Of a stretch of 64,000 bases of DNA, positions 2,340 to 50,455 are shown piece after piece. The notes beneath the pieces were generated by a model, which saw only the letters and a list, made by a program, of their open reading frames with translations, was not told the origin of the DNA and did no database searches. Position 1 is the first letter of the stretch; the number at the start of each line of letters is the position of its first letter. Position numbers and translations under genes: made by a program. The DNA is from Sphyrna mokarran. Taxonomy: Eukaryota. The stretch is taken from contig JAGIQG010000017.1 of assembly GCA_024679065.1 (NCBI GenBank), forward strand, positions 27,032,001-27,096,000, read 5' to 3'.

Positions 2340-3440
2340 AAAAAGCCGTAGTTAAACAGTCCTACTATATCCCTCTATCTGCATACCGCTCATGTGGCTG
2401 TCCAAGAGACCCTTAAACAGCCCCAACGTGCCTGCTCCCACCACCTTACTCGGCAGTGCATTCCACACCCCCACTACCCTTTGTGTGAAAAACTGCCCTC
2501 TAATATTCGTCTTATACATAGCCCCCCTCACCCTAAGGCCATGACCCCTCTTCCTATCCATTTCTGAAGGTGGAAAAAGTTTACCACCATTTACTCTATC
2601 TATACCCCTTGTAATCTTATACACCTCTATTAGATCCCCTCTAAGCCGACGTCTTTCAAGGGAAAACAACCCCAGTCTATTTAATCGTTCCTCATATGAC
2701 AGTCCTTCCATACCAGGCAGCATCCTGGTAAACCTCCTCTGCACTCTCTCCAAGGACTCCACATCCTTCCGATAGTACGGCGACCAGAACTGGACGCAGT
2801 ATTCCAAGTGAGGCCTAACCAACGTTTCTATACAACTGCAACATCAAACTCCTACTCTTGTATTCTATACCCTTTTCTATGAAAGCTAACATACTATACG
2901 CCTTCTTTATCACCTTCTCCACCTGTGAGGACACCTTCAGAGACTTGTGAACCTGCACCCCCAAGTCTCTCTGCGTCTCTATGCTCCGTATAGTTTTACC
3001 TTTTATCCTATAACTCTCTTCTACATTTTTCCGGCCAAAATGCATCACCTCGCATTTATCCGGATTAAATTCCATTTGCCATCTATCTGCCCAGTCTACC
3101 AACCTATCTATGTCCTGTTGTATTGCCTGGCACTGCTCCTCTGTACCCGCCAATCCAAGCATCTTAGTGTCATCAGCAAATTTGCTGATCTCACCACCTA
3201 CCCCAACTTCCAAGTCGTTTATGTAGACCCCAAATAGAAGAGGACCTAGTACTGAGCCTTGTGGCACTCCACTAGTGACAGGCTTCCAGCCGGAAAAAAA
3301 GCCTTCCACTACTACCCTCTGTCTCCTCCTCCCAAGCCAGTTCTCGACCCATCTACATACCCGGCCCTGTATCCCATGCGCCTTCACCTTCTCTATCAGT
3401 CTACCATGAGGAACCTTGTCAAACGCCTTACTGAAATATA
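2340..3440 (-). mobile_element. CR1 LINE 3' fragment (reverse transcriptase), one frameshift
   Basis: ORFs 2815..3387 (SGVPQGSVLGPLLF, KFADDTK) and 2352..2822 (VRPHLEYCVQFWSP, SLERRRLRGDLIEVYK). Confidence 0.95.
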
Positions 3441-5175
3441 CCTTCCTTCAGGTCTGGGCATGCTTCCTAAAATATGGTGCCAAGAGATGGACATATTCCA
3501 GTTAAACTCTAACTAGTGTTTTAAAGGTTTCTGATGTTGATCAGATGCATGTCATCAGTGCAATTTCACCGTGTGCCAAAACAATTAAGATTATCAGGCC
3601 TTTAGTCTCCATAATGTAGAACATCTATGGCACCCAGAAGGATTGATTGCACTTAGACTCCAGGACTATGGATCTTGCATATGGAATTAGTGAACTGTTG
3701 TACACTGAAAGTTGTACGGTAGTAGATTTTACTGTGAGCTTCTATGTCTATGAGTACATGTCTGACAATTCACAGAGGCAGCATGTTGACACCGCCCCCC
3801 TCTTATTCTCCAATAAGGAAAAGTTACCAACTTTCTTCGGACAGATAATTTGAATCTTGGCAAACACAAATGGTGGCAACATCTGTGTTTTCCATGACAT
3901 TGACAATGTAAAATATATTCACTGCTCATTGTTTCTTTGTGCACATTGCTGTCATTTTTTGGTTTGTCAATTGCTTCACCTAATGGGATAATGGATGGTC
4001 ATTCTTATTGCTTGAAAGTACCTGTTGTGTTTGATTGCTGTGGATCAGTGTACAACTTTTTGTAGCTACATAAGCCTTCTCTCTAATGCACTGCCAATGG
4101 CCCTTTCTGCCACATGCCTTTCAGAATTGCTTGGTGTTTCCTTGTTGCATGCAGAAGGCTACACCATCAACATTTCTGCTGGGTTTAGCTGTTCTAATAA
4201 GTGTGCCAACAACTGAGGTTGTATTTAAGACTTGCGGGGATTGCATCATAGTTTTTGAATAATTCTTCAATGCTTTGGGCTTTTGGAACAGATCTTTGTG
4301 GAATGCTTCCATGGGAGTAGATGTTACCGTTGCTTAACAATTCTGTCATCTATCCCTGCATTTGAAAAATCACTGTACATACGCTTTACTGTATATCTGC
4401 TGACAAAGTGGTCTGTGGATTCTGTAGACTTTTGTTGAAATGACATGAGCTCTAGTCAATAAATATAGAAATGGATCACTTGATTCTGAATTGGTTTTTC
4501 AATGTAGTCTATTTTTAATGGCGAATCTTTAATTCTTTTGCCGACGTGTTCAATTTGTGTGGACCTTCCTTTCTAGGTGAATTATTATGACTTGTTTTTC
4601 TGATTCGGGATACTTTTCAGTGTTTAAACATTTTGAATTTGGATATTGGGTCACATCAGGTCCAATTTCAAATTGGGGAACTTTGTGAACATTTTGACAA
4701 TGTCCCTTTGAGCTACCTTCTCCTTTAGTACCTGGGATGAATGCATAACCATTTTCATGTGCTGATTATTTTAAACACAACCATCTCTGACCTGATTTTG
4801 TTTTTATGTTTGACTCCCCCTCACTTGCTACGAAGCCGGCCCATCTCTTTGCCATTCGCTTTTCCTGTCTAAGTTAATCCAGTGCTGTGCCTCTCGATGT
4901 GCCAGCCCACTTACCATGAGGGATTTGACTGCTGACCAGCCCTTTATTTGAGCACTATCCAAAGCTGTGTCTTCAAAAGCCTTTCTGTGCAGTCACCACA
5001 CTGCGGATTCAACACTTTCTCACACTGCAGTTTCATTACCACCTGACCAAAACATCGTGAGTCCATCCCATGCCTGACAGTATGATGTAAAACTGTTCAC
5101 TGTGTTGTACCTGTAATGAATCTTGCTGTCAGACTTAGCAATATGTTGTTTAGAAGGTACCACTACTACACACTA

Positions 5176-5692: not shown

Positions 5693-7013
5693 AATGAGGT
5701 GTTCTGGTCCCCAAAAGGACACATATCAGCACAGACAGTTTATAGATTGCTGATTAGAATGCAAATCCTTACACCTAACCTGCTATTCAAGTCTTAAAGT
5801 GGCTAACAATGTGAGTGGAAGGAACACTGAGTACTGAGGTTAGAGAGATGTGTATTGTCTCCAGACAGCACAGTAAGTGAGGTTTTTTGCTAACCCAGGC
5901 CAGTCATGGGGGTTATAGATAGTGTGACATGAAACCAAGATCCCTGTTAAGACCGTCCTCATGTGTACGGAACTTGGCTATCAGTCTCTGCTTAGCGGCT
6001 CTGCGCTGTTGTGTGTCATGAAGACCCCCTTGAAATACGTTTACCCGAAGGTCGGAGGCTGAATGCCCGTGACTGCTGAAGTGTTCACCCACAGGATGGG
6101 AACTGTTTTGCCTGGTGATTGTCGAGCGATGTTCATTCATCCGCTGTTGTAGTGTTTGCATGGTCTCCCCAATGTACCATGCTTCAGGACATCCTTTCTT
6201 GCAACGTATTAGGTAGACAACGTTGGCCGAGTTGCAAGAGTATGTACCGTGTACCTGGTGAATGGTATTCTCATGTTTGATGATGTCATCCATGTCGATG
6301 ATCCAGCATGTCTTGCAGAGGTTGCTGTGGCAGGGTTGTGTGGTACTGTGGTCACTGTTCTCCTGAAGGCTGGGTAGTTTGCTGCGAACAATGATCTGTT
6401 TGAGGTTGTGCGGTTATCTGAAGGCAAGAAGTGGGTGGGTGGTGATGGCCCTAGCGAGATGTTCATCATCATCAATGATATGTTGAAGACTCCGGAGGAG
6501 ATGTTGTAGCTTCTCCGCTCGAAGCATGGTACGTTGGGGAGACTATGCAGACACTACGACAGCGGATGAATGAACATCGCTTGACAATCACCAGGCAAAA
6601 CAGTTCCCTTCCTGCAGGCAAACACTTCAGCGGTCACGGGCATTCGGCCTCCGACCTTTGGGTAAATGTTCTTCAAGGGGTTCTTCATGACACACGACAG
6701 CGCAGAGCCACTAAGCAGAGACTGATAGCCAAGTTCCGCACACATGAAGAAGGCCTTAACAGGGATCTTGGCTTCATGTCACACTATCTGTAACCCCCAT
6801 GACTTGCCTGGATTAGCAAAAAACTTCACTTACTGTGCTGTCTGGAGACAATACATATCTCTCTAACCTCAGTGCTCAGTGATCCTTCCACTCACATTGT
6901 TAGCCACTTTAAGACTTGAATAGCAGGTTAGGTGTAAGGATTCGCATTCTAATCAGCAATCTGTAAACTGTCTGTGATTTTATGTGTGCTTTTGGAGACC
7001 AGAACACCTCGTT

Positions 7014-16564: not shown

Positions 16565-17620
16565 AACCTTTGATAAGGTTCCCCATGGTAAGCTATTGCA
16601 GAAAATACAGAGGCATGGGATTGAGGATGACTTAGCGGTTTGGTTCAGAAATTGGCTAGCTGCAAGAAGACAGAGGGTGGCGGTTGATGGCGGTTACTAG
16701 TGGTGTACTGCAAGAATCTGTTTTAGGGCCACTGCTGTTTGTAATTTTTATAAACGACCTGAATGAGGGCATAGAAGGATGGGCTAGTAAATTTGCAGAT
16801 GACGTTAAAGTCGGTGGAATTGTGGACAGTGCGGAAGGATGTTGCAGGTTACGAAGGGACATAGATAAGCTGTGGAGCTTGGCTGACAGGTGGCAAATGG
16901 AGCTTAATGCGGAAAAGTGTGAAGTAATTCATTTTGGAAGGAGTAACAAGATTACAGAGTATTGAGCTAATGGTAAGATGCTTGGTAGTGTGGATAAGCA
17001 GAGAGATCTCGGAGTCCATGTGCATAGATTCCTGAAAGTTGGTACCCAGGTTGATAGAGTTGTTAAGGAGGCGTGCAGTATGTTGGCTGTTGGTAGAAGG
17101 ATTGAGTTTAGGAGCCATGAGATCATGTTGCAGCTTTACAAAACTCTGGTGTGGCCGCACTCGGAGTATTATGTACATTCTGGTCGTCGCGTTATAGGCA
17201 GGATGTGGGAGCATTGGAAAAGGCATAGAGGAGATTTACCAGGATGTTGCCTGATATGGTGGGAAGGTCGTGTGAGGAAAGGCTGAGTTGTTAGAGAGAA
17301 GTGACTTAATGGAGGCATACAAGATGATCAGAGAATTCGATAGGGTGGACAGTGAGAGCCTTTTTCCTTGGATGGAGATGGGGATGAGGGGGCATAGCTA
17401 TAAATTGAGGGGTGATGGATATAGGACAGATGTCAGAGGTAGATTCTTTACTTGGAGAGTAGTAAGGGCATGGAATATCCTGCCTGCAACAGTAGTGGAT
17501 TTGCCAACATTAAGGGCATTTAAATGGTCATTGGATAAACATATAGTTGATATTGGAGTAGGCTTTAGATTGGTTTCATAGCAAAGAGCCTGCACTGCGC
17601 TGTAATGTTCCATATTCTAT
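16565..17620 (+). mobile_element. CR1 LINE 3' fragment (RT), decayed
   Basis: SGVLQESVLGPLLF, KFADDVK and later RT peptides with stops and frameshifts; same subfamily as 11848-12615. Confidence 0.93.
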
Positions 17621-19007
17621 GTTTCATTGTTCATTGGCAACCATGCATCACTGTCCATCACTCATGCACCTCAAATGCTTTAGCTACCAATGAAATGAAA
17701 CCCAGTTTTCAGTTAGCATCTACAGTGTCGCTAGATTCCCCAAGAAAAGTATGAGAGGAATCAAACAGTTGTCTTTTTGAAGGCTGCTTCTGTTTTCACA
17801 GCATTTCAGTATGGTCGCACAGATGTAAACATATCGTCATTTCTAAGCACTCTGAGAAAACAGAGAAGGTAGATCGTTTTTCTTGCTCCACTTAGCAAAT
17901 GTTCCTTCAGCTTCCAGGTGGCTAGATACCTGATAACTGAACTAGATTTTGATAAGCATAGTTGTGATCTGACCGAAACGTGACCCCTGGCCAACAGCAA
18001 TGTTACTGATTTGTCCTTGCTCAATTAGGAATCAATAACATATAGTGGCCTGAAGAATTGTTGCCAATACTGTAACTTTAACAAAACTCAATACTGTGTG
18101 GCTCTAAAAATGAACAGTGTGATTTGCTGCATGTGCTGAGCTTATTAGACAACATTGATCTGGTAGAGCAGCTGAATGGTCTATCCTATCCTATCTTGTA
18201 TTTTACTGTGAAACCCTGATGTATCAAAATGTTGGGCAAAATTGGTAGTCAATGATGAAAAATGATGTGCCCTGTGTCTATGAGAGTACTTGACTGACGC
18301 ATCCTGGTGCCCACTATCTTGCCAATCATTTTCTATTATCATTTTACAGCTGTCTTAAATAATGACTTATTGCCAACAACTGAAATGTATACACCACTTT
18401 TTCCATCACAATTTCCTGCGGTTTTGATCAGATACACAATCGTTTGTTGCAAAGAGAAGCTCATTGAGAGTGAAGAGTTAATTAATCATATTTTCCTTAT
18501 GCTAGAAGCAGAACCATTAAAGCACTCAATAACAGAGGTTTAGTACAATAGAGTGAAGGGGTTGTGCTGGTGCAGCAATAAAGGGATCTCTTTGCATGTG
18601 TACGTGTTTCTGCTAATAGAATACCTCCATGCTAGTGGTAGGCTCCAGCCAGTGGCGCTGTTAAAGCGAGAATGGGGTTTGACATCTAATTGAAATTCAG
18701 TGAAAATAACAGAATAGATTCTGGTCAATCAAAGGAATGGTGCTGTCAGATACAACACTGAAGTCCTTCTGCACCAGCCTATGCATTGCCAGCAGTTGGT
18801 TCATGCTGTGAATGGAGAACGATTGATGGAATCGAGTGTACAGGCAGCTACTTTATGCCATACAAGGAGCTTGTGAAAGAACGTCCGCTGCTGGAAGCAT
18901 AAAGGATGCCCTGCCTGCAGTGACTTACATTCACTCAACTGAACAGCAATTTCCCTTCTGCTTTGAGCTTAACTACAGCATTTCTTATAGGTAGAATTAG
19001 GAAAGAA

Positions 19008-19126
19008 ATGGCTTTTAGCCCGTGGCATATCCTGTCTCCAGTACGATGGGTTCGATGGACATGGTCTGCTGTGTGTGGTGGAGGAGACTATAGTCTCCAG
19101 TTCATGCAGAAAATAACTAGAGTTAG
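19008..19126 (+). CDS. TACC2: TACC2 candidate first coding exon (TACC1-like N-terminus MAFSPWHILSPVRWVRWTWSAVCGGGDYSLQFMQKITRV)
   Basis: ATG at 19008 in good Kozak context (gaaATGg). Peptide resembles the recalled human TACC1 start MAFSPWQILSPVQWAKWTWSAVRGG. Ends in phase 2 at AG|GCAAGT (GC donor), matching the phase of the next exon. Confidence 0.75.
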
Positions 19127-19236
19127 GCAAGTGTGTTTGGTGTTATTAATGGCATAAGAGGATCAGAGCGAGTAGGGGGTTAGCATCTCAGTGGGATTGA
19201 ATTCATTTCTTACAGAATGTGTTCATTTTGCTTTAG

Positions 19237-19361
19237 GAGCTCAGACTCAGAGGGAGCGTTTGAGACACCTGAAGAGACAACACCTGTCAAAGTCCCTCCG
19301 CAGATCTCTCCTCCTGCCACTGAGAAGGAAAGCCAGGAACAGCTGCCTTCAGAACAATCAG
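19237..19361 (+). CDS. TACC2: TACC2 exon SSDSEGAFETPEETTPVKVPPQISPPATEKESQEQLPSEQS
   Basis: Acceptor ttttgctttag, donor G|gtaaag. Encodes the conserved TACC1/2 SSDSE.AFETPE motif. Phase 2 in, phase 1 out. Confidence 0.93.
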
Positions 19362-34875: not shown

Positions 34876-36190
34876 TGTTTTTTCCTGATGATAATCAGAC
34901 TGGTGTTGCCCCTGAGACCGCACTGCAAGAAACTGATTCCTTCAGACCTCTTACTGAGTCAGCTTCAATTGTCTTTGATGAGGATAAACCAATAGCCAGC
35001 AGTGGTGCTTATAAAATAGATTTTGATAGTCTTGATATTTTAGACTCTTTCCAACCTCACTGTCCTTTGGATCCGAGCTCACCTGTGAAGTCGGAAAGTT
35101 CCAAAATTTGCGGACAATCCAGTGAGAATTCTTTGCATTCGACCAACAGTACCAGCTCAGCACTGCCAACATCTCCCCCGTTGGCGCGAAAGTCTGATGG
35201 AACTACAGATGTTGGTCGCACAGAGGAGGTGGCAAAAACATTACAGGCAGAGGCTTTTAGCATAGCCTCAGATAATGCTCACAGTGTCAAGAAAAAGAAA
35301 CCTAGACCACTATCTCTAAAAAAGAAGACCAAGTCTGAGAAACCAGCAGAAACACAAGCAGATAAACCAACAGAGACCTCAACTGTGACAGAAACGCGAG
35401 CAAGGTCCACCATCCCCGAGACTAATAATGAAGTGACTGTGTCTCATTCATCCTGCAACAGTTTACAAAGCGCAGTTGATCAACAGGACTCTCCCATTCC
35501 TCATCAGGCTTCCTGCAGTTTTGATCCAGATAACCTTTCCGAGCGTAATCCACTTGCGAGTGGAGATAAACAACAGAACTTGCCAGTGTCACAGAGTGAG
35601 TGTGAGACTGTTACTGCTGTGTTAAAAGAAGCGGATAACATTGCACCCGAGTCTGCAACGCTTCCTGATACTCCAGCTGTGGGCCATGCAGTGAGGCTGG
35701 AGTTTGATTATTCCGAGGATAAAGACAGTTTTGAAATTGAACAAGAAAAAAAGCCCATTGCTAAGAAATTTGGCAAAAAATCTGGTGGAAAGATGCCACT
35801 TAGAAAGCCAAAGATAGGAATCAAGAAGGTTCCGGCAGTGGAAAAGGTAGACAACGCTCTTGCTGCACCATCTCATTCAACAGTTGATCCCGATGATATC
35901 CCTATTCCAAAGACCACTTATTCATTTGACCCTTCGAAATGGGATGATCCCAATTTCAACCCATTTAGCAGCAATGTACAAGTTCCTAATTCTCCCAAGT
36001 TGCCTCATGCTTCATTCAGTTTTGACGTGGACAACTGTGATAACTCTGTGGACTCATTTAAATCTTCGGCAAAAATCTCAGGATCCCCTTCCCATTCCCC
36101 TGCATCATTTGAAGTGAATGATGACTCTGGTACTAGTGAAGGGGATGTTAACAATAAATCGTCGAAGAAGAAGAGGCTACCTTTAAAGAC
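34876..36190 (+). CDS. TACC2: TACC2 large exon (serine/proline/acidic region with SDP-type repeats)
   Basis: Lies within ORF 34818..36194. Acceptor tttctatttcag, donor AC|gtaagc. Motifs VFDEDKPIASSGAY, KKKPRPLSLKKK, VRLEFDYSEDK, KMPLRKPK, KWDDPNFNPFSS and KKKRLPLKT match recalled TACC2. Confidence 0.97.
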
Positions 36191-47709: not shown

Positions 47710-47770
47710 AAATACTTTTCGGGTGAAGAGATCCCCAAAGCGTACCTCACTATCTGAAGCATCCTCGCAG
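47710..47770 (+). CDS. TACC2: TACC2 exon NTFRVKRSPKRTSLSEASSQ
   Basis: Acceptor tctgcag, donor CAG|gtcagt. Matches mammalian DTFRVKKSPKRSPLSDPPSQ. Phase 2 in, 0 out. Confidence 0.93.
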
Positions 47771-48232: not shown

Positions 48233-48458
48233 GAATCAACGCCGCTTAATACACCTGAGACTCCGCAGGTAATTGGCACGGTGGAACATGCCACTGATGA
48301 AGAGAAACTGGCATCTTCAGTGACAAATCAGAAATGGTCCTACTCTGGAATACAAAGTGAATTGGAAGAAGATAAACCTGATTATCCTCAGCCTTCAGAT
48401 CTTTCCGCGTTCGTCAATGAAAATTCTGAATTTGTAAATGAGAATTATTCTTCAGCGG
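48233..48458 (+). CDS. TACC2: TACC2 exon ESTPLNTPETP...HATDEEKLA...DYPQPSDLSAFVNE
   Basis: Acceptor cattttag, donor G|gtatgt. Contains the TACC1/2 HATDEEKLA motif and the TACC2 DYPQPSDLS motif. Confidence 0.95.
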
Positions 48459-48914: not shown

Positions 48915-50455
48915 TCTATAAATGGTAGGTTACTGAGATCTATAGGAAAGAATGATCTTGGTGTGAATGTTCGCAGATCCTGATAGTGGTTAAACAGGTA
49001 GCTAAGGTGATGAAGAAGGCAGGTGGGATATTTGCTGTTATCAGCTGAAACACAGAATGTAAAAACAAGGCATTTGTGGCTGAACAGTATAAAACATTTG
49101 TTTAGTCATAGCCTGCAGTTCTGGACACAGCCCTTTCAGAGAGTTATGGTTGTAATGGAGAGAGTAAAAGGAGGTTTATGAGGATGTTGCCTGGAGTGGA
49201 GAATTTTAGTTATGAGGAAAGGTTGGATAGGCTATGGTTATTTTATTTGGAACAAAGAAGGCTGAGGGGAGACCTAACTGAAGCGTATCAAATCATGAGG
49301 GTTCGGAATAGAGTGGATTGGAAAGCCCTACTCCCTACAATTGAGGTCTCCATAACCAATGAGCATAGATGTAAGGTGAGAGATACAAGGATTAAAAGAA
49401 TTATTTTTCTCCCAGCAGGTGGTGAGGAGTTGAAATTCATTGTCAGCAAGGGTGAGAGAGAGAGAAAGAAACTCTCATAACATTTATAAAATACTTGAAT
49501 ATGCATCAGAAGTGTTGAAACCAAGAGCTGGAAAGTGAAATTAGGATGGATGACTATCATCAACATGCGTATAGACTGGCAGTGATTGGCATGTTTTTGT
49601 ACAGTAAATTTCTATGATGAATGATAGAATCCTTTCAGTGCTGAAGGAGACCATTTTGCCCATCAAGACTGCATCAACAATAATCCCACCCAGATCCTAT
49701 CCCCCGTAACCTCACATATTTACCCTGCAAATCCCTCTGGCACTAAGGGGCAATTTAGCATAGCCAATCAACCTAACCCACACATCTTTGGACTGTGAAG
49801 GAAACCGGAGTACCCAGAGGAAATCCATGCAGACACGGGGAGAACATGCAAACTTCACACGGACAGCATCCAAGTTTGGAATTGAACCAGGTCCCCCTGG
49901 TGCTGTGAGGCACTGTGCCAGCATGTCACCCTAATGACAAGATACAGGAAGGATGTAACTGCTTTGTAAAGAGTGCCAAGAAGATTTACAAGAATGTTGC
50001 CAGGCCTAGAAAAGTGCAGTAAGAGAAGAGATTGGATAAATTGGGGTTATTTTCCTTGGAACAAAGGACATTGACGGACGACTTGATTCGGCTGTACAAA
50101 ATTATGAGGGGAAGACATAGAATGGACTGTTAAAAATGTTTCCCAAAGGAGAATTCTAGAACCAGGGGACATAGATTCGGAATAAGTGGCAATAGTGTAG
50201 AGGGGACAAGAGAGAGAACTTTTTTTATGCAAAGGGTGTGTGAGTGCCTGGAATTTGCTGCCTGAGTTTGATGGAGACAGTGGTCCAAATCTCTTTTAAA
50301 ATACATCCGGATCTGCAACTTAAGTGCTGTAAGCTATAGGGCTATGGGTTAGGTGCAGGAAAGTGGGATTAGAAAGGGCACTTGGGTGTCCTCGGATGGA
50401 CAAGATGGGCCAAATGGCCTCCTCCTGTATGCTTTCACTTTTCTATGAGTTGATT
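48915..50455 (+). mobile_element. Two CR1 3' fragments (about 48915-49615 and 49940-50450) separated by an HE1 SINE (49620-49931, -)
   Basis: RMLPGVENFSYEERLDRL..RRLRGDL peptide; second RT C-terminus and 3'UTR; SINE head and V core between them. Confidence 0.82.

Follow-up and report, generated by a model that had tools for sequence, protein, structure and literature searches.

The TACC2 locus and its tryptophan-rich exon

The window, by which we mean the whole 64-kb stretch of DNA analysed here, carries a gene that sequence comparison identifies as TACC2 (Table 1). A preliminary description of this DNA had called the downstream exons TACC2-like, and this was borne out by homologue matches, tblastn and phylogeny. 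When tblastn scores against the window were summed, four TACC2-side proteins (sturgeon, turtle, marmoset and elephant shark) reached 513-745 bits and six TACC1 proteins 114-209 bits. In a gene-body tree (IQ-TREE, last 200 amino acids of the large exon, 18 rows) the window grouped with shark TACC2 with a support of 97/96, its nearest company being epaulette shark and sawshark TACC2, and six TACC1 rows were separated at 100/99. No protein named TACC1 or TACC3 occurred in the best 120 of the 670 large-exon matches (E ≤ 0.001). Window exon sizes of 125, 1315 and 61 nt agree with human TACC2 exons 8-10, given as about 137, 1312 and 61 nt in Table 1 of PMC8087818. The exons of the TACC coiled coil (PF05010) lie past the window end, the coiled coil being found in orthologues, and no neighbouring gene was recognised among the long open reading frames of the window.

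Table 1. Features located in the window, with the evidence on which each placement is based.
Feature	Position	Strand	Basis or remark
Fragments resembling CR1/L2-type LINE reverse transcriptase ends (presumed)	2352-3447, 16660-17581, 49112-49480, 62936-63283		
Two inverted fragments resembling Penelope-type GIY-YIG endonuclease (presumed)	5913-6793		
Conserved upstream block, candidate promoter or 5' leader of the Trp-exon isoform	18490-18926	+	boundaries set post hoc
Trp-rich alternative first exon of TACC2, coding part	19008-19126	+	119 nt = 39 codons + 2 nt; sequence, splice phase, orthologous isoforms
GC-AG intron, 110 nt	19127-19236	+	donor AG/GCAAGT, acceptor TTTAG/; splicing inferred from orthologue proteins
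First common TACC2 exon (SSDSEGAFETPE, SSDSE)	19237-19361	+	covered exactly by 3/3 RNA-like contigs of relatives; acceptor common to at least 3 upstream exon types
Large TACC2 exon, 1315 nt, SDP-repeat region	34876-36190	+	homologue matches, tree; junction from 19361 in loose contig ends
TACC2 exon, 61 nt	47710-47770	+	tblastn, tree
TACC2 exon with HATDEEK motif	48233-48457	+	tblastn; ends approximate
TACC2 exon	52750-52815	+	tblastn; start approximate
TACC2 exon	53100-53231	+	tblastn; ends approximate
TACC2 exon	56775-56936	+	tblastn; ends approximate
Two more TACC2 exons (about 61800-61936, about 62093-62190)	61799-62194	+	tblastn

The feature of interest is the tryptophan-rich (Trp) exon. 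As described previously, an ATG at 19008 opens MAFSPWHILSPVRWVRWTWSAVCGGGDYSLQFMQKITRVR, and an in-frame stop is present upstream. The 110-nt spacing to the SSDSEGAFETPE exon in compatible phase was likewise confirmed, via a non-canonical donor only: the two exons can be joined in frame solely through a GC-AG intron in phase 2, with the junction arginine as residue 40. Among nine GT or GC candidates at 19080-19140, TAG/GCAAGT at 19127 gave the best U1 match (7/9 to the consensus), while the runner-up (6/9) was in the wrong phase and the remaining phase-2 candidates scored 3-4/9. The site has GC at +1/+2 in an otherwise near-consensus donor and is followed by an AG acceptor, as expected of a GC-AG intron. 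Two GT donors at 19122 and 19131 were ruled out, their phase being wrong for the acceptor at 19237 and position 19123 being altered in a relative. Retention of the 110-nt intron would stop the reading frame after 49 residues. The Trp motif occurs once across the six frames of the window; an MGGSQS-type exon and a long upstream exon were looked for in the same 64 kb and not found.

Distribution and age of the exon

The exon is very probably the shark copy of an alternative TACC2 first coding exon conserved across jawed vertebrates. It is real and conserved, and most likely functional. The motif was present in 68 of 263 retrieved proteins. Of these, 23 are TACC2 isoforms with the exon spliced in, contributed by 14 named species (sturgeon, three turtles, fox, pilot whale, right whale, pig, donkey, deer mouse, hamster, marmoset, macaque and bonobo). 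In isoforms such as XP_065408393.1 of Chrysemys, XP_058891682.1 of Acipenser, XP_072596383.1 of Vulpes, XP_054949386.1 of Pan paniscus and XP_073859047.1 of Macaca, the Trp exon directly precedes the SSDSE exon as in the shark, and the Trp pattern and a D-x-S-L tail are shared. The junction arginine lies at position 40, the shark length, in 20 of the 23 isoforms, at 39 in two and at 42 in one. With turtle residues 1-52 as the query, 10 proteins came back from 12 candidates, and all were TACC2. According to the preliminary description, mammalian TACC2 has a different beginning and the module was specially retained in the shark. Neither view stands, as ten mammals including bonobo have spliced RefSeq/UniRef isoforms starting with this exon, and the claim of novelty falls because annotations of sturgeon, turtle and mammalian TACC2 already include the exon. 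Unlike the shark copy, these other isoforms are automatic annotations; the shark copy extends the exon of the bony-vertebrate annotations to cartilaginous fish, which by itself is of little significance.

The Trp exon is a minor choice of TACC2. Among the best 120 of 670 large-exon matches, 9 start with it, compared to 60 with MGGSQS, 12 with MGNE and 39 with other sequences. It was present in none of the 12 human records examined, which is no sign of true absence given that the listing covered 15 members of each large cluster, nor in the 11 shark TACC2 isoforms listed (7 from Hemiscyllium, 4 from Pristiophorus). In Chrysemys isoform X30 the annotated start is an internal methionine of the Trp exon, so that most of the helix is missing. 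A rhino prediction runs through an intron of 198 nt, so that a short intron is also found in a mammal.

The label "TACC1-type" previously given to the exon proved misleading. With a partial bird row left out, residues 1-26, the core, are identical to the shark at 18-21 of 26 positions in TACC1, 17 in lamprey and sturgeon TACC2 and 11-16 in amniote TACC2. At residues 27-37, the tail, turtle TACC2 matches at 7-8 of 11 positions, mammalian TACC2 at 2-5 and TACC1 at 0-1. Shark and turtle peptides are 62% identical over 37 residues. The mammalian copies have kept the Trp pattern with many neighbouring residues changed (11-14/26 identical to shark), and the shark core is nearer to the TACC1 and lamprey state than they are. 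By these comparisons the shark exon is the TACC2 orthologue of the Trp exon; its core has changed slowly, hence the earlier impression of TACC1 likeness. Six columns are invariant in 21 sequences (M1, W6, W14, W17, W19 and V22) and two more nearly so. The peptide is not a chance reading frame: a phmmer search with its 39 residues against 1.84 billion representatives gave 43 matches at E ≤ 0.001, of which 36 carried the motif (32 TACC1-type, two TACC2 and two lamprey proteins) and 7 were unrelated repeat proteins. A weaker word-index search with a 40-residue peptide had given no match. Searches with the peptide returned no Pfam family and no Foldseek match in the PDB, and the best score in the ESM Atlas was an uninformative 0.78.

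TACC1 exon 1, the N-terminus of TACC1-A, shares with the shark TACC2 exon both the core and the phase-2 junction to the SSDSE exon. In TACC1, however, the core is followed by an acidic linker in place of the TACC2 tail, and the Trp exon forms the main N-terminus of the TACC1 records examined. In lamprey TACC (CAM9390124.1 of Lampetra fluviatilis and CAM9474851.1 of L. planeri, both unnamed gene predictions) the exon is one residue shorter and is followed by an R-Q-V read-through. The lamprey coiled coil is equidistant from the two paralogues (99-107 for TACC1 and 103-107 for TACC2, of about 165). A 17-row coiled-coil tree placed lamprey between TACC1 and TACC2, and in the 18-row gene-body tree it fell within TACC2 on a long branch whose support is open, each tree being built without a TACC3 row. 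A TACC3-type Aurora-A-binding segment (Pfam PF25777) is also strongly matched in lamprey TACC, at 56 bits; it scored 21-26 bits in two turtle TACC2 proteins and gave no match in two TACC1 proteins and sturgeon TACC2. Both of the Atlas clusters closest to the lamprey protein bear the name TACC3, and against the solved human TACC3 fragment it scored 95-97 bits, a small margin over TACC2 and TACC1 (90-92 bits). The lamprey protein unites the Trp exon and the SDP-like and ATDEEK segments of TACC1/2 with this TACC3-type segment, and it may show the ancestral TACC architecture. The earlier proposal that the module predates the TACC1/TACC2 split is supported by the presence of the motif in both paralogues and in lamprey. 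That the exon is also older than TACC3 is only possible.

The rare GC donor, too, appears to be kept beyond the shark. Of 61 motif-bearing proteins, 23 are predictions that run past the exon end with R-Q, 22 of them reading R-Q-V and one R-Q-R. R-Q-V is read in lamprey, in turtle-type and rhino TACC2 and in mammal- and bird-type TACC1, and the window reads likewise. After an exon ending in AG, R-Q-V requires an intron starting with GCA(A/G)GT or ACA(A/G)GT and cannot arise from a GT start. The read-throughs imply that a GC donor is common to both paralogues and lamprey, outside sharks as deduced from proteins and not from DNA. Five frog-type TACC1 proteins end exactly at the end of exon 1, as a GT donor would give, and are a probable exception. 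Among the introns of coding genes about 0.8% are of the GC-AG type; they are over-represented at the first-intron position, and some are conserved to fish, according to sections of PMC7242645. That study includes ABI3BP-type first introns, in which a GC donor in a short first intron is likewise kept across vertebrates; TACC was not found in two small supplement files of the same study. A conserved GC donor is unusual, yet with precedent, but unlike the ABI3BP-type sites the TACC donor appears common to two paralogues and a jawless fish.

The predicted N-terminal helix and its proposed role

AlphaFold predicted a helix at residues 6-24, with a mean pLDDT of 82 at residues 11-20 (66.6 for the whole model, pTM 0.33). 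The preliminary description had proposed an amphipathic targeting or binding helix. The helical part agrees with this prediction, but the amphipathic part is not supported: the hydrophobic moment (100 degrees) was 0.04-0.37, and all 27 tests left it no higher than composition shuffles (p 0.17-0.97). Mean hydrophobicity over residues 6-23 and 11-23 was 0.65-0.99 in nine family members, and the segment is hydrophobic on most helix faces.

The best overall explanation, to which we assign a probability of roughly 0.8, is that the conserved exon probably gives rise to a short TACC2 isoform with a predicted Trp-rich hydrophobic helix at its N-terminus. A more tentative step is that this helix would dock TACC2 on a membrane. 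Transcription would start from an internal promoter close upstream, as suggested by the conserved block and by the lack of upstream exons in the orthologous isoforms. The weak GC-AG intron would be spliced so as to join the Trp exon to the common SSDSE exon, a junction seen in the orthologous isoforms and presumed for the shark. Residues 6-24, with four invariant tryptophans, are predicted to fold as a helix that would anchor the N-terminus, while the C-terminal TACC domain, described in passages of PMC5063610 and PMC4520305 as tracking or binding microtubule plus ends, would hold these ends. The docking helix would then stand at the tip of a long disordered arm, with the TACC domain at the opposite end.

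A start of the type MGxxxS is the consensus for N-myristoylation. Other TACC2 first exons begin in this way (MGGSQS or MGNE in 72 of the best 120 matches), and the first-exon slot would exchange one membrane anchor for another. It is because of these starts that we give the membrane-anchor step some credit, though tentatively and at somewhat less than even odds. Several observations weigh against it: the moment did not exceed that of shuffled sequences, a specific binding surface is the likelier look of the near-invariant TACC1 core, and some copies from mammals have lost the charge (net -1 in fox). Moreover, a Xenopus TACC1 N-terminal GFP construct stays cytoplasmic in the account of PMC4520305, where the tag may mask the N-terminus.

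The helix of the conserved exon could instead be a protein-binding surface, for LSm7/SmG or another partner, linking the isoform to RNA-processing or other complexes. We consider this possible, at odds clearly below even, because TACC1 exon 1 is cited as including an LSm7/SmG binding site in a passage of PMC8665927 that refers to Conte et al.; the same report speaks against the membrane step. The invariant and nearly invariant columns and the position of the tryptophans on two helix faces, with a low moment, also fit a binding surface. However, the LSm7/SmG report comes to us as a secondary citation, Trp-rich peptides may be sticky in two-hybrid tests, and the residues around the tryptophans diverge in mammalian TACC2. 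It is unlikely that the helix folds back on the coiled coil of the same protein, or on that of a second copy, so limiting binding to the microtubule lattice, by autoinhibition or oligomerisation. TACC1 and TACC2 constructs without the N-terminal part showed extra lattice binding in passages of PMC4520305 and PMC5063610, and the broad hydrophobic surface would suit such contacts, but these deletions span hundreds of residues, the first exon of the TACC2 clone is not given in those passages, and the helix is missing from 111 of the best 120 TACC2 matches.

If docking of the helix on a membrane is combined with the lamprey data, a broader reading can be drawn, which we regard as rather unlikely as a whole. 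A single pre-vertebrate TACC would have had the Trp-helix exon, the GC donor and the Aurora-A segment; after the genome duplications the helix would have stayed in TACC1 and TACC2, and the Aurora-A site in TACC3. This would make the helix a so far undescribed membrane anchor interchangeable with myristoylated N-termini, tying plus-end adaptors to membranes, the weak GC intron would act as an on/off switch, and humans would likely have such a TACC2 isoform.

The general interest lies in a 26-residue motif with four invariant tryptophans that extends from lamprey to apes in two paralogues and has no Pfam model. We found no description of the TACC2 Trp exon, of a tested role for the motif in TACC2, of the TACC1 GC donor or of TACC2 myristoylation in the portions of the literature searched (including PMC2822774, PMC5193094, PMC1175095 and PMC3237596), and earlier TACC work may already mention the shared N-terminus. 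TACC2 is reported both as tumour suppressor and as tumour promoter, a contradiction ascribed to isoform complexity in sections of PMC8087818. For these contradictory cancer reports, an N-terminus that has been overlooked and that bonobo and macaque possess provides a cheap testable variable.

Transcription and constraint in sharks

RNA-like contigs of three related organisms all cover exactly the SSDSE exon and continue into the exon at 34876. At 19237, two of them come in from a long upstream exon, and the third from an exon of the MGGSQS type, as read from loose contig ends set against proteins. None of these three contig sets covers the Trp exon, but such contigs drop rare variants and are thus uninformative on a minor isoform. 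A sequencing-run search returned no matching run listed as RNA on record.

The DNA contig of a relative differs at three positions of the 119-nt Trp exon, all residue-changing and none synonymous; the open frame is kept and no difference is listed at the GC donor. Two of the changes, R13Q and R38G, bring the peptide closer to that of turtle. Compared to the downstream intron, conservation of the exon is only modestly higher (3/119 vs about 32/437, p 0.057, the intron count assuming that 29 unlisted differences fall after 19394). The upstream block, with 5/437 differences, is about six times more conserved than this intron (p 5e-6, boundaries post hoc). It contains a TATA-like CATAAA at 18898 and several upstream ATGs (18737-18906), and fits a candidate promoter. 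The p10 promoter of TACC2 is placed far upstream, at a different exon, in the relevant part of PMC8087818. The supplement of PMC7430845 gives one SOX10-dependent start site each for rat Tacc1 and Tacc2, with log2 fold changes of -2.2 and -6.9, respectively. This lead was dropped, as no first exon could be assigned to the rat start sites and a scan of the conserved block for dimeric SOX motifs gave none.

It is very unlikely that the exon is a silent relic in this shark, with transcription or splicing lost. Its absence from the listed shark isoforms and the exclusively non-synonymous differences to the relative would agree with a relic, but ATG, frame, length, donor and acceptor have all remained intact since the split from bony fish, more than 400 million years ago, and the identity to turtle and the conservation of the upstream block argue likewise for a working exon. 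It is scarcely credible that the gene is TACC1, or that gene conversion transferred the exon from TACC1 into shark TACC2: the core is indeed nearer to TACC1 (18-21 identical residues) than to amniote TACC2 (11-16), but the gene body clusters with TACC2, tail and length are TACC2-type, the acidic TACC1 insert is missing, and the 17/26 of lamprey and sturgeon TACC2 suggest that the TACC1 likeness is a retained ancestral state.

In one relative's RNA-like contig, an exon whose end resembles that of the MGGSQS first exon of turtles and sturgeon is joined to the SSDSE exon at 19237. From this junction, cartilaginous fish also appear to have an MGGSQS first exon, located outside the window.
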